From: Cyanobacteriota bacterium
GTDB lineage: Bacteria > Cyanobacteriota > Vampirovibrionia > Gastranaerophilales > UBA9971
Direction of reading: 5' to 3'
NCBI GenBank assembly: GCA_022703625.1
Contig: JAKLDH010000002.1
Span: 1,462-65,461, forward strand
DNA: 64,000 nucleotides
A model generated the notes under the pieces. That model searched no databases and was not told the DNA's origin. It saw only the letters and a program-made list of their open reading frames with translations. The translations under genes were made by a program, and so were the position numbers. Numbering within the stretch: position 1 is the stretch's first letter; the number at the start of each line of letters is the position of its first letter. Below are positions 8,809 through 11,217 of the stretch, one piece after another.

Positions 8809-9108
8809 CTAACAACACTTGCCGCTTTTACCATTAGAGCAATCGCAGGTAGGTTCAGTTCCCATTAATTTGCCCATAATAATAGCGTATGCGCAACCGA
8901 CTCCTGTTTTAACTTCGATTGCGCCAGCCGGACAATTTTTTGCGCATGCTCCGCATTCCATACAGGAATCCTTATCAATAATTTCTGCTTTGCTTCCCTT
9001 TATATCAAATACTCTGTGCGGGCAAACGTTCACGCACATTCCACAACCAACACACTTGTCAGGCATATATTTTAGGGTTGAAACATTCTTTAAATATTTA
9101 TTTTTCAT
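8809..9108 (-). CDS. hgcB: HgcB-like 2x[4Fe-4S] ferredoxin with C-terminal Cys pair
   Basis: Start chosen at ATG 9108, which forms an ATGA overlap with the upstream stop. Clusters CVGCGMCVNVCP and CMECGACAKNCP, then GVGCAYAII...EPTCDCSNGKSGKCC-end, matching the HgcB architecture. Confidence 0.75.
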   Translation of the reverse strand: MKNKYLKNVSTLKYMPDKCVGCGMCVNVCPHRVFDIKGSKAEIIDKDSCMECGACAKNCPAGAIEVKTGVGCAYAIIMGKLMGTEPTCDCSNGKSGKCC

Positions 9109-10058
9109 AATATTATTACCCCCACGCATATAGATAAAATAATTGAAGGAACAGCGTATTGCATTTCCTTTATCACGCCTGAAAATGATGTATAAGTTGA
9201 TGCTCCTGTAAAATTCATTGCATAAAATGCGGACATGGCAGGAAAAACAAGCAAATAGCCTAAGTCATGCAATAAATTCTCTCCCGGTAAAAACAGGCTT
9301 GCCATAATAAGTCCCAATAACCAGCCTTTAAATGCAAAAGCCCTGCCCGGAATCCATGGCAATAAAACCGGAGTAAGAACACACCCTGCGATTAAAGCGC
9401 CTAAATAAGCATACAAATCTTTTATCCCAAAATGCTTAATCCCTATAAAATTTAGCAAGAAAAGCAATAGTAAAACAATGATAGAAGGTTTTATAGCGGC
9501 TGTTAATTCCAGTGGTGTTAAAACCAGACGGTCAATCATATTAAATTGCACTGTCCGCATTTCTTTTGTTGCTTTCATCCCTGCATTAATAAATTCTTTT
9601 ATGTCCTTTGCCCTAACAGGTCCATAAGTCACCTTAAAACCTGAATCTTTTAAAACTTCATGTGCGGATATTCCTACTGCTCCCAGTTGTGGAACTATAA
9701 TTGATTTATGGGAAACAACCTCAGCTAATTTCACCTCGGCAATACGGTTAACAAGCTCATTTGTGGCAAAAGTTCCTTTTGCAGCAGCACACCATACATT
9801 GATTCCTTTAGTATCAAGCACAAGTATCCATGCATTCAGGTCTTGAAGTTCTTTTCTAAGGGTATCAACGGTCAACTTGTAGTTTGCTGTAACGAGAACA
9901 GGCGAGTTGGAATCGGGGTTTCCAACAGCATATAATCCCGGAGTTAGTATATAACTCATCCTGTTTATGCCCCAGCGAGCTTTCCACGAATTTACAACAT
10001 CGCTAAAGGTTAATTGGGTTGAAATTTGAGGGATATTTTTATTAGAAAAATGTACCAT
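9105..10058 (-). CDS. hgcA: HgcA-like corrinoid protein (cap-helix NVWCAAAKG) with C-terminal transmembrane domain
   Basis: 317 aa. The N-terminal soluble half reads GLYAVGNP..SPVLVTANYKLT...LDTKGINVWCAAAKGTF. The C-terminal half has several hydrophobic helices. Cap-helix codons lie at 9777-9800. The gene overlaps the upstream permease by 17 nt. Confidence 0.75.
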   Translation of the reverse strand: MVHFSNKNIPQISTQLTFSDVVNSWKARWGINRMSYILTPGLYAVGNPDSNSPVLVTANYKLTVDTLRKELQDLNAWILVLDTKGINVWCAAAKGTFATNELVNRIAEVKLAEVVSHKSIIVPQLGAVGISAHEVLKDSGFKVTYGPVRAKDIKEFINAGMKATKEMRTVQFNMIDRLVLTPLELTAAIKPSIIVLLLLFLLNFIGIKHFGIKDLYAYLGALIAGCVLTPVLLPWIPGRAFAFKGWLLGLIMASLFLPGENLLHDLGYLLVFPAMSAFYAMNFTGASTYTSFSGVIKEMQYAVPSIILSICVGVIIL

Positions 10059-11217
10059 ATATAAATCCTGTTATTGTCGCCATTACAACTACAAGAGAAA
10101 CAAACACAACAGTTTTTTGTGTTCCCATAATACTTCTTATTACTATCATATTAGGAAGCGACAGCGCAGGTCCTGCAAGAAGTAGTGCCAATGCCGGTCC
10201 TTTTGCCATACCATTTCCGATTAATCCCTGCAATATCGGCACTTCGGTCAGGGTTGCAAAGTACATAAAAGCTCCGACAACCGAGGCAAACAGGTTTGAT
10301 AACAAGGAATTATCACCAACAAACATTGTTATCCATTCAGACGGGATTAGGCCTTCATGCCCCGGTCTTCCAAGTAATAATCCTGCGATTAAAACTCCAA
10401 ATAACAGCAAAGGCATTATTTGTTTTGCAAATCCCCATGTTGCGTTGAGCCATTCATTGCTTTCATCTTTGCTTTTAATAAAGTTTGGCAGTATAAAAGC
10501 AAATAACACTGCAAAAATAGAGGTTATTATCCACTTAGAGTTAAATATAGCCGCAAATATTCCGCTGTCAGTCTGCGGGTTTCCCCAGTTTGCGAAAACA
10601 AGTATCGCAACCATTACCGCAAAAAAGGCTGCATTTTGCCATAAAGGTCTTGCAACTTCAGGCTCAGGGAGTAATGCCTGCGCCGAGGCTTTGTCATGTT
10701 CTTCTTTTCTGTAAATTAGATACATTACTAAACCAATAGCCACGCTAAAAATAACAGAGCCGATAACACGGGCAACACCGAGTTCAAAGCCTAATATTCT
10801 TGCTGTCAGTATGATTGCTAAGATGTTAATTCCGGGTCCTGAATACAGAAATGCGGTTGCGGGGCCTAGTCCTGCCCCCATTCTATAAATTCCTGCAAAT
10901 AAAGGAAGCACTGTACAGGAACATACAGCTAAAATACTGCCTGAAACCGAAGCTACACCATAAGCCAAAACTTTATTAGCCCTTGCTCCAAGGTATTTCA
11001 TAACCGAATTCTGGCTGATAAAAACAGCAATTGCCCCAGCTATGAAAAATGCGGGGATTAAGCATAATAAAACGTGTTCCTGAGCATACCACTTGGCAAG
11101 GTGCAAGGATTCTGTTATTGCGTTATTAAACCTTGCATTTTCAATAGGCAGGAAAAAGAACAATAAAAATATTGAAACTATTGCTGCCAGTGGTTTTAAT
11201 TCTTTTTTCCAGTCCAT
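10042..11217 (-). CDS. arsP: ArsP-like permease (COG0701/PF03773-type predicted permease)
   Basis: 391 aa, polytopic. It has a CSC motif in a helix (SILAVCSCTVLPLF), as in the ArsP/DUF318 family. It is the first structural gene after the two arsR genes. Confidence 0.7.
   Translation of the reverse strand: MDWKKELKPLAAIVSIFLLFFFLPIENARFNNAITESLHLAKWYAQEHVLLCLIPAFFIAGAIAVFISQNSVMKYLGARANKVLAYGVASVSGSILAVCSCTVLPLFAGIYRMGAGLGPATAFLYSGPGINILAIILTARILGFELGVARVIGSVIFSVAIGLVMYLIYRKEEHDKASAQALLPEPEVARPLWQNAAFFAVMVAILVFANWGNPQTDSGIFAAIFNSKWIITSIFAVLFAFILPNFIKSKDESNEWLNATWGFAKQIMPLLLFGVLIAGLLLGRPGHEGLIPSEWITMFVGDNSLLSNLFASVVGAFMYFATLTEVPILQGLIGNGMAKGPALALLLAGPALSLPNMIVIRSIMGTQKTVVFVSLVVVMATITGFIYGTFF

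Follow-up and report, generated by a model that had tools for sequence, protein, structure and literature searches.

We analyzed a 64,000-nucleotide (nt) stretch of DNA (the window; positions 1,462 to 65,461 of contig JAKLDH010000002.1, assigned to the Gastranaerophilales in the Cyanobacteriota), in which the mercury methylation gene pair hgcA-hgcB is located inside an arsenic island. The main new result is that the operon containing this pair is a chimera of two conserved modules. We assign a probability of about 0.6 to the reading that an intact HgcAB pair, carried in an hgcA-hgcB-acr3 cassette, has been fused into an arsR-permease-arsC-arsEFG-fmdE operon of the Melainabacteria type. The recurrent evolutionary unit is hgcA-hgcB-acr3 under ArsR, rather than hgcAB plus ArsP. 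As judged from the gene contexts compared here, the linkage of hgcAB to arsenic genes is real, recurrent, and regulatory, but it is already known.

Chimeric origin of the operon

Protein families were assigned with Pfam and NCBIfam models and their cut-offs, and the window was compared with loci that are designated here by L-numbers, among which L001 bears identical gene copies. Two conserved arrangements were found to make up the island. (i) Module A, represented by the contexts of the nearest permease homologs (L169 to L173), has the order arsR-[mntP]-permease-[arsC]-arsE-arsF-arsG-fmdE and is located beside uvrB or uvrC; neither hgcAB nor acr3 is present in these contexts. The window proteins that match this module are ArsR2 (87% identity to the L169 ArsR, the regulator of a Melainabacterial permease operon), the permease (82 to 88%), ArsC (80%), ArsE (~80%), ArsF (64 to 78%), ArsG (68 to 88%), and FmdE (73 to 80%). 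(ii) Module B has the order copA...arsD-arsA<->arsR-hgcA-hgcB-acr3 in L004 and arsA<->arsR-(CMD/ArsD)-hgcA-hgcB-acr3-arsC in L174, and the permease is absent from both loci. Its counterparts in the window are ArsR1 (73 to 79% identity to the hgcAB-linked ArsR of L004 and L174), HgcA (68%), HgcB (74 to 75%), Acr3 (71% to Acr3 of both loci, where the gene is also 3' of hgcB), and ArsA (74% to ArsA of L004 and 83% to the partial ArsA of L174); the ArsD proteins of the window and L004 share 54% identity. By protein identity, these comparisons show the window to consist of the left part of module B, the arsR2-operator-permease segment of module A, the hgcA-hgcB-acr3 segment of module B, and the arsC-arsEFG-fmdE segment of module A. 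The individual features of the island, including predicted transmembrane (TM) segments, are as follows.

11622..11945, minus strand: arsR1; HTH_5 56.6 bits, NF033788 79.1 bits; alternative GTG start at 11915
11324..11638, minus strand: arsR2; NF033788 89.9 bits; probable ATG at 11620
11248..11281, minus strand: candidate ArsR operator/promoter; palindrome plus TATAAT box (11253-11248)
10042..11217, minus strand: permease of PF03773 (ArsP_1; TCDB ArsP family), 391 aa; ArsP_1 244.8 bits
9105..10058, minus strand: hgcA, 317 aa; NF040863 463.9 bits; corrinoid domain, cap helix, and five C-terminal TM helices
8809..9108, minus strand: hgcB, 99 aa; NF040864 132.9 bits; 2x[4Fe-4S] ferredoxin
7728..8783, minus strand: acr3, arsenite efflux permease; TIGR00832 441.8 bits
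7309..7731, minus strand: arsC, thioredoxin-coupled low-molecular-weight phosphatase (LMWP) type; TIGR02691 168.4 bits, slightly below the cut-off of 174.3
6992..7312, minus strand: arsE-like, MTH895-family thioredoxin, 106 aa; TIGR00412 117.1 bits (cut-off, 62)
6475..6927, minus strand: arsF family; NF040494 89.5 bits (cut-off, 60); 64 to 78% identity to module-A relatives
5786..6469, minus strand: arsG-family (DsbD_2-type) membrane transporter; NF040495 284.9 bits (cut-off, 200); 68 to 88% identity to module-A relatives
5309..5776, minus strand: 155-aa membrane protein with Cys-rich C terminus (p155); open reading frame (ORF) between arsG and fmdE
4585..5307, minus strand: FmdE-domain protein; PF02663 74.4 bits; 73 to 80% identity to module-A relatives; ends the module-A block
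11946..12141, no strand: divergent control region between arsA and arsR1; TTGaCAAATTAaCCAA block partly kept in L004 (alignment); inverted repeats
12142..13947, plus strand: arsA ATPase, divergent from the arsR genes; PF02374 ArsA_ATPase in two stretches
13925..14833, plus strand: arsD, long form, 302 aa; ORF with ArsD domain and C-terminal extension ending in CGSGCPCH
14847..15542, plus strand: multi-TM protein, 231 aa, after the long arsD; no Pfam match

The junctions of the chimera lie between arsR1 and arsR2, between the permease gene and hgcA, and between acr3 and arsC, and all are seamless. At the first junction, the ATG of arsR2 (11620), 1 nt past the arsR1 stop codon, matches the N terminus of the L169 regulator. 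At the second, the homology to module A extends past the permease stop codon (10044-10042) by ~5 nt, and the hgcA ATG (10058) and an AGGA are contained in permease codons that already read ...AGGATTT.T.TATGG... in relatives free of hgcAB. Because this ATG and AGGA pre-exist in the permease gene, the 17-nt overlap of the two genes appears to be a by-product of the landing site of the cassette. The overlap behind the translational coupling that had been proposed for this locus is confirmed, but the pairing of permease and hgcA does not look purpose-built for arsenic methylation. In our view, the contact between permease and hgcA would be a secondary effect of operon fusion and not a dedicated product-export pairing; to judge by their conservation in separate contexts, the permease and HgcAB each have conserved partners of their own, and the contact between the two is recent. 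At the third junction, sliding identity to L174 is ~80% down to ~7756, whereas from the arsC start onward it is 87 to 90% to L169 versus 72% to L174, and the crossover is better placed, on this measure, at or near the arsC start. Since both modules carry arsC at this position, homologous recombination at arsC would be the simplest route. An origin of the Acr3 tail and of the acr3/arsC ATGA in the permease-arsC spacer of module A was rejected, given that L174 has a homologous tail and a native acr3-arsC junction.

The layout given in the original prediction was borne out in full by direct reading of the sequence. The ORFs, coordinates, and motifs of the hgcA- and hgcB-like genes are all as described, the minus-strand order is arsR-arsR-permease-hgcA-hgcB-acr3-arsC-thioredoxin, divergent from arsA-arsD, and, besides the 17-nt overlap, those of hgcA/hgcB, acr3/arsC, and arsC/arsE-like each consist of ATGA. 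The spacing between hgcB and acr3 is 25 nt and includes AGGAGA. The genes listed as the operon are all present, but its end does not lie at the thioredoxin gene, as the same strand runs on through arsF, arsG, p155, and fmdE. The island also lacks an ArsM-type methyltransferase, as predicted: no methyltransferase domain was detected in any island gene (Pfam, NCBIfam), and a crude regular expression for motif I of S-adenosylmethionine (SAM) methyltransferases had no match in any frame of the 64-kb window.

Identity of HgcA and HgcB

HgcA scored 463.9 bits with the NCBIfam equivalog HgcA_corrinoid (NF040863; cut-off, 275) and remained under the cut-off of the models for fused HgcAB_like proteins (207 versus 285) and for the gamma subunit of the corrinoid iron-sulfur protein (CFeSP; 84 versus 306), and HgcB scored 132.9 bits with HgcB_ferredoxin (NF040864; cut-off, 99). 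Scoring with hidden Markov models (HMMs) had been proposed as a check on the two proteins; both equivalog models were thus passed, and the paralog models failed. Identical copies of HgcA occur in at least three separate samples (ERZ795055, JGI 3300010429, and ERZ27257480). The nearest homologs besides these share 64 to 68% identity and carry mostly Bacillota labels, with Desulfitobacterium, Desulfosporosinus, Pelotomaculum, and Pseudobacteroides among the labeled sequences. The NCBI name for the identical protein is 'mercury methylation corrinoid protein HgcA [Candidatus Gastranaerophilales bacterium]'.

The cap helix NVWCAAAK, which contains Cys90, is encoded at 9800-9777, inside GINVWCAAAKGTF. 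HgcB has both CX2CX2CX3CP motifs, in the clusters CVGCGMCVNVCP and CMECGACAKNCP, the CMECGA motif, and a C terminus (...CDCSNGKSGKCC) with a terminal CC pair (...GKCC). A sequence search of the PDB with HgcA matched the CFeSP corrinoid domain alone. In the AlphaFold2 (AF2) model, with a predicted local distance difference test (pLDDT) score of 73, HgcA is composed of a Rossmann-like domain and five TM helices (residues 174-204, 212-235, 241-255, 262-287, and 292-316), and this fold was matched best by the published HgcAB model 9a0b, followed by structures of CFeSP. Five TM helices are also what the C-terminal domain of HgcA is reportedly expected to have. HgcA retains Cys90 and all alignment-wide invariant columns, and at sites invariant in 25 relatives it has 3 substitutions, with 0 to 5 in the other members. 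By these features, HgcA and HgcB are orthologs of the mercury methylation pair and apparently intact.

The cap-helix variant

The cap helix had been described as deviating by one residue from the canonical set, with AAAK for AAGK, and this is confirmed; of the consensus N[V/I]WC[A/S][A/G/S]GK, the Cys and the NVWCA stretch are kept. NVWCAAAK is present in 8 of 166 close HgcA homologs. Six of the eight, the window included, form one clade in a neighbor-joining (NJ) tree (bootstrap, 16/30 with the window and 25/30 without), and the motif in P0009 and P0261 falls outside it; the clade has diverged to ~65 to 68% identity with the motif still conserved. All NVWCAAAK HgcA proteins with readable context are encoded in ars clusters (window, L004, L174, L175, L176/177, and L178/179). 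Furthermore, acr3 is located directly beside hgcAB in 6 of the 6 evaluable loci with AAAK, AAGA, or AAGE, versus 17 of 95 with the canonical NVWCAAGK. This association would correspond to a p value of roughly 0.01 if the lineages were independent; since the six loci represent only about three independent lineages, it is suggestive and not established.

Two consequences concern the use of the motif. (i) The Hg-MATE consensus protocol accepts six cap-helix motifs for 'high-stringency' hgcA (PMC10087281), and such filters would overlook the NVWCAAAK lineage. (ii) All loci in which a G/K position of the catalytic cap helix was seen to be substituted are ars-linked, and these variants would offer a cheap, testable handle on substrate specificity.

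A separate observation concerns L176 1-13071 (JGI 3300030427). This locus has an independent NVWCAAAK hgcAB with a MarR-family gene, not arsR, ahead of it; it is flanked by a molybdopterin oxidoreductase/4Fe-4S/chaperone trio on one side and by arsR-arsD-arsA-acr3-arsC on the other. The trio looks like an arrABD-like arsenate respiratory reductase.

Regulators and candidate operator

ArsR1 and ArsR2 are both regulators of the ArsR/SmtB family, and ArsR1 is the ortholog of the regulators ahead of hgcA in L004, L174, and L178. It reads GEKTAGE where five relatives have GEKCVC (L004:7663-7956, L174:910-1236, L178:2145-2438, ArsR2, and the L169 ArsR) and has thus lost the CVC motif, while the C-terminal CxCx6C is common to all six aligned ArsR proteins, including ArsR1 and ArsR2. 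The loss of CVC in ArsR1, kept in its orthologs, suggests redundancy after the fusion.

Approximately 31 nt 5' of the permease ATG, the window contains the palindrome ATATGGtA-N4-TGCCATAT, followed by TATAAT. The form ATATGGCA-N4-TGCCATAT is near-invariant among relatives (for example, L169:6938-6971 and L171:68-101), and the block ATATGG(c/t)(a/g)A(a/t)TTTGCCATATA(g/a)TAATGTA(t/c)AAT is near-identical in the window, L169, L171, L172, and L173, where the flanks diverge. The palindrome occurs a single time in the window, as compared with 0 occurrences expected from 100 shuffles. The segment 11248-11281 is therefore a candidate ArsR2 operator, probably superimposed on a promoter with a TATAAT -10 box; no description of this operator was found in the literature searched. 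In its relatives, hgcAB is located directly behind its own arsR, whereas here it stands behind a second operator that comes from module A. hgcAB is embedded in the arsenic operon and most likely co-transcribed with it; the conserved ArsR-type operator upstream and the ars linkage across phyla speak against a chance placement.

The PF03773 permease

The permease scored 244.8 bits with PF03773 ArsP_1 (TCDB 2.A.119; cut-off, 32.3), and its best NCBIfam hits, the Cu/Zn efflux model SO_0444 (115 versus 300) and SaoE (113 versus 325), were under cut-off. The methylarsenite [MAs(III)] exporter ArsP, as characterized, has a TPFCSCS-type vicinal Cys motif. The window permease has a central insertion of ~55 residues, carries the CSC motif as AVCSCTVLP and not TPFCSCS, and is ~22% identical to the TPFCSCS-type ArsP_1 permeases of L042, L063, and L077; its closest homologs (82 to 90% identity) include proteins labeled Melainabacteria/Gastranaerophilales. 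The description of this protein as ArsP-like is thus correct at the level of the Pfam family but not for the classic subtype, and the 391-aa protein is better regarded as a divergent subtype within the ArsP family. A tblastn search with the window permease had made ArsP appear nearly unique to this locus. This impression was caused by sequence divergence, since ArsP_1 permeases were detected with Pfam and a small HMM in L042, L063, and L077, together with weaker matches in L011 and L138.

According to a review, ArsP and Acr3 are encoded together in the ars operon of Campylobacter jejuni, and ArsP exports trivalent organoarsenicals (PMC6205960). In view of this operon, an ArsP-family permease in an ars operon does not on its own imply methylation in the cell. 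Taken together with the arsEFG-family genes downstream, the same case allows the permease of the window to be explained without in-cell methylation, by import-and-expel of external organoarsenicals.

Arsenic linkage of hgcAB in other genomes

To place the window in context, 80 species-representative genome loci (of more than 590 HgcA loci in GTDB) and 79 metagenome loci with close HgcA relatives were searched with the ars proteins of the window at strict thresholds. Among the genome loci, 25 of 75 had an ArsR homolog encoded directly 5' of hgcA, as had 26 of 54 among the metagenome loci, and at least one ars structural gene was present within 3 kb of hgcA in 15/54 and 6/22 loci, respectively; owing to the strict thresholds, these figures are undercounts. 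The order arsR-hgcA-hgcB-acr3-arsC recurs in L020, L026, L027, L032, L049, and L086, and the cassette arsR-hgcA-hgcB-acr3(-arsC) is also found in L004 and L174. Furthermore, four different gene orders, found in differently labeled MAGs, combine hgcAB with an ArsP_1 permease, arsE(FG), and acr3/arsC: that of the window and those of L077 (labeled Bacteroidales), L042 (Bacillota), and L063 (Phycisphaerales). L179 has hgcAB-arsE-arsF-arsG. Complete inorganic and organic arsenic toolkits have been assembled with hgcAB independently in at least four phyla.

ArsM-like genes adjoin hgcAB in L149 and L106, so HgcAB is not a general stand-in for ArsM. Apart from this, L106 (termite-gut contig Ga0082212_10002901, 6230-13720) was seen to have two hgcA-hgcB copies that flank acr3 and an ArsM-like gene, in the order arsD-arsR-hgcA-hgcB-acr3-arsM-like-hgcA-hgcB; the ArsM-like protein scored 247 bits, with an arsenite methyltransferase cut-off of 263.

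Such neighborhoods have been published before. Genes flanking hgcAB include acr3, arsC, arsR, and arsM (McDaniel et al. 2020; PMC7438021, Fig. 6), control by ArsR and effects of arsenic on hgcAB were tested in strain ND132 by Gionfriddo et al., who also reported hgcAB co-located with ars genes in other genomes (bioRxiv 10.1101/2022.10.17.512643), and later field studies repeat the hgcAB-ars neighborhood (PMC10349881; Peterson 2025, PMC11984097). The ArsR-like regulator near hgcAB that the original prediction mentioned for Pseudodesulfovibrio is indeed the one described for ND132 (10.1101/2022.10.17.512643). An outcome that the original prediction had named as counting against it has essentially come about: HgcA falls among HgcA proteins annotated from Bacillota genomes, and the ars context is common and has been published since 2020. 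In the literature that mentions both hgcA and arsP, no description of the two as neighbors was found.

Proposed function and alternative explanations

In the proposed mechanism, HgcA, which has a membrane domain, would carry methyl groups on a Cys-ligated corrinoid, and its 2x[4Fe-4S] ferredoxin would be HgcB. A single ArsR-repressed transcript, permease-hgcA-hgcB-acr3-arsC-arsE-arsF-arsG-p155-fmdE, is probable; it would start at the operator/promoter at 11248-11281, with read-through from arsR1-arsR2 possible. As(III) or another thiophilic metal or metalloid would release ArsR, HgcB would reduce the cobalt on HgcA, and the methyl group would pass from the Cys90-ligated methyl-corrinoid to a thiol-bound soft metal or metalloid. 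Three predictions of graded strength can be derived. (i) By analogy with its orthologs, the enzyme is likely to be capable of acting on Hg(II). (ii) Given its position in the operon, we predict that expression of hgcAB is tied to arsenic stress. (iii) An arsenic-directed physiological role of HgcAB is plausible, although we rate its chances at somewhat less than even. The proposal of an arsenic-linked HgcAB is accordingly supported in part, by the embedding in the operon, the operator, and the recurrence, but the comparative evidence does not support it in the form of a permease-specific module. The native function of HgcAB has long been open, with arsenic as the leading published lead, and the locus sharpens this question but does not answer it. 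It also represents a compact natural operon with a defined candidate operator, which is amenable to a comparison of Hg and As methylation.

Several observations weigh against the reading of an intact cassette fused into the Melainabacteria-type operon. (i) NVWCAAAK is not among the six motifs of verified methylators (PMC10087281). (ii) The pLDDT of the AF2 model is <50 at residues 85-97, which form the cap helix; use of the model for judging the cap helix was dropped for this reason. (iii) As compared with 25 homologs, HgcA has an 11-residue deletion in the loop between TM3 and TM4 and a short C terminus. (iv) Most HgcA proteins reportedly have an N-terminal Cys/Sec-rich (CC/CU) extension that lies outside the original family definition (Haft 2022), and HgcA of the window does not have it; there are several in-frame stop codons upstream, where the DNA encodes the permease. 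(v) Scans of 4000-15700 for promoter and terminator consensus sequences gave no more sites than shuffled sequences, and they were therefore not used as evidence on transcription units. (vi) The host label rests on the binning of this contig, which is made up of mobile elements, into a metagenome-assembled genome (MAG). (vii) The repeated independent co-assembly of hgcAB with full ars toolkits and the ars-restricted cap-helix variants fit a true arsenic function better, so the incidental part of our reading may be too conservative.

An alternative that we consider unlikely, yet the strongest of the competitors, is that hgcAB is a passenger without arsenic function that hitch-hikes with acr3 on mobile metal resistance islands, the ArsR-type control being generic thiophilic-metal sensing or an accident of the landing site. 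The surroundings are consistent with this view, as the island lies among genes for CopA, DUF305, and efflux proteins of the resistance-nodulation-division (RND) and outer-membrane types, adjoins a Mu-like prophage that comes with three transposases of the Mu type, and bears clear signs of recent operon shuffling; in addition, the HgcA tree conflicts with species trees (PMC7438021), and lower hgcA transcription was correlated with arsR presence in a eutrophic lake (PMC11984097). However, ars linkage in approximately a quarter to a third of the loci, across many phyla and in several gene orders, far exceeds what drift would preserve, no seam shows at any of the three junctions, and all key residues of hgcAB are retained. 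Among 72,556 plasmids and 50,697 phage genomes, a tblastn search with HgcA gave no match, which argues against HgcA as typical mobile-element cargo.

One of two options put forward in the original prediction was a methylation/export module replacing ArsM, in which HgcAB would methylate As(III) to methylarsenite and the coupled ArsP-family permease would export it, independently of ArsM. We regard this as improbable. Points in its favor are that ArsM is absent from both the island and the window, that an ArsP-family permease overlaps hgcA directly, that ArsP_1 permeases recur in the hgcAB-ars operons of three other phyla, and that the cap-helix variants are associated with acr3 and ars clusters as described above. 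An hgcAB deletion strain of ND132 is also said to be more sensitive to As(V). Corrinoid-dependent metalloid methylation has a precedent in methanogens (PMC6205960). In contrast, the permease partners with arsC-arsEFG-fmdE and HgcAB with arsR and acr3, each separately; their adjacency is derived and was seen in this lineage only, the ATG of the overlap pre-existed in the permease gene, and most hgcAB-ars cassettes have acr3 and no ArsP_1 permease. The permease itself is divergent (~22% identity) and below every NCBIfam equivalog cut-off, ArsM-like genes co-occur with hgcAB (L149 and L106), and no report of arsenic methylation by HgcAB was found in the literature searched. The ArsP exporter of C. 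jejuni is encoded in an ars operon for which the review names no arsM (PMC6205960). A broader version would be that the NVWCAAAK lineage, perhaps ars-embedded HgcAB generally, acts as a corrinoid-dependent methyltransferase for arsenite or another metalloid in the ars response; we hold this to be a long shot. If it were true, arsenic methylation would follow an ancient anaerobic pathway that does not depend on ArsM, with Hg(II) methylation as a side reaction.

That hgcA is a decaying relic losing function after transfer is very improbable, and the pseudogene reading was rejected: the unlisted motif, the 11-residue deletion, the truncated C terminus, and an N terminus recruited from permease sequence could be taken in this sense, but the reading frame is not disrupted, the invariant columns are kept along with Cys90 and the five TM helices, the 3 lineage changes are within the normal range, HgcB is intact with CMECGA and its CC tail, identical copies come from at least three separate samples, and AAAK is conserved across a clade diverged to ~65 to 68% identity, so that the departures in cap helix, extension, loop, and C terminus do not look like decay.

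Host and genomic surroundings

No housekeeping gene was found in the 64-kb window, the rest of which consists of prophage and transposase genes; the Gastranaerophilales label is for this reason a binning call. A Melainabacterial host is supported indirectly by the labeled permease homologs with 82 to 90% identity. Occurrence of hgcAB may thus extend to Melainabacteria, which are not mentioned by McDaniel et al. (PMC7438021). In the literature searched, hgcA and Melainabacteria come up together in two broad reviews, in each of which the group is named once.

The Mu-like prophage (15571-48824) begins 29 nt from the last gene of the arsenic island and contains genes for virion morphogenesis, two DNA methylases, Mu F, portal, terminase, MuA (46289-48304), and a MuB-like protein (45541-46299). 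The minus strand carries its packaging block and the plus strand a block at 22.9-40.3 kb, an arrangement that departs from the canonical Mu order. To the right, two further transposase genes of the Mu type (49270-51279 and 54566-56533) are each followed by a smaller ORF, forming the transposase/ATPase pairs 49270-52082 and 54566-57398. On the other side, the arsenic genes are part of a larger metal island (window 1-4126 and L001 15933-20954) that encodes CopA, DUF305, and an outer-membrane efflux protein. This CopA is 86% identical to the CopA beside hgcAB in L004, where a similar metal set is accompanied by CzcABC-type RND and cation diffusion facilitator (CDF) genes.

Several smaller proteins of the island have Cys-rich tails. 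The ArsE-like protein shares 79 to 80% identity with its module-A relatives (76 to 78 aa) over just 72 to 73% of its length; a C-terminal tail of 30 residues with 9 cysteines (...EECCSDKNSCDINCAPNKNSCDCGGCC), which resembles how HgcB (Cys-rich) and the long ArsD (CGSGCPCH) end, is missing from these relatives. The 155-aa protein had no match in a Pfam search; TM helices at its N terminus are combined with a tail rich in Cys (CPNCPNEC...GKCGK), and it is not present between arsG and fmdE in L169 and L171 to L173. For the long ArsD, the match to PF06953 ArsD was obtained on the identical gene in L001. An unannotated 247-aa gene (L004:4117-4860) occupies the same place after arsD as 14847-15542 of the window, and the post-arsD membrane gene may be a conserved unnamed member of the arsA-arsD unit.

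Comparison with known systems

The corrinoid Rossmann-like domain of HgcA is homologous to that of the CFeSP large subunit (AcsC/CdhE; 2h9a, 2ycl, and 4djd), with an E value of 6e-11 and a Foldseek TM score of ~0.36 over 125 residues; unlike CFeSP, HgcA lacks an N-terminal [4Fe-4S] domain and a TIM barrel, and it carries a TM domain as well as the cap helix with its Cys. ArsM, which is absent from the window, would yield the same product class if HgcAB methylated As(III), but its fold and cofactor are unrelated.

ArsEFG has been assigned to Shewanella putrefaciens. The genes 3' of arsC pass the ArsE, ArsF, and ArsG family models, for which the NCBIfam descriptions give ArsF as the nitroreductase-subunit and ArsG as the aminobenzylarsenical-efflux family; they differ in that ArsE of the window has a Cys-rich tail and that the module also has FmdE and the permease. 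ArsP of C. jejuni, an efflux permease for methylarsenite and roxarsone(III) (Chen 2015, as summarized in PMC6205960), belongs to the same PF03773 family, is encoded in an ars operon with Acr3, and has a Cys-x-Cys motif in a TM segment. The window permease differs from it by the ~55-residue insertion, by AVCSCTVLP for TPFCSCS, and by its partners arsC, arsEFG-like genes, and FmdE.

As in the window, the HgcAB system of ND132 pairs a corrinoid protein, which has a TM domain and a Cys in its cap helix, with a dicluster ferredoxin that bears a C-terminal CC. This strain (Pseudodesulfovibrio mercurii) reportedly carries a regulator resembling ArsR upstream of its hgcAB genes (Parks 2013; Goni-Urriza 2020; Gionfriddo 2022/2023). 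The regulator is co-oriented and of the ArsR family, as here, and arsenic-responsive control is the published model (10.1101/2022.10.17.512643). In ND132, no other ars gene is located beside hgcAB and the cap helix is NVWCAAGK, whereas in the window hgcAB lies between permease and acr3 in an operon that comprises ~10 genes and has two arsR genes, HgcA has NVWCAAAK as its cap helix, and the N-terminal Cys/Sec extension is missing. A parallel in gene order is provided by the published hgcAB-acr3/arsC/arsR/arsM neighborhoods (PMC7438021, PMC11984097, and PMC10349881), which have the same arsR-hgcA-hgcB-acr3(-arsC) unit; to this unit the window adds a PF03773 permease before hgcA, arsE/F/G, fmdE, and a divergent arsA/arsD pair.

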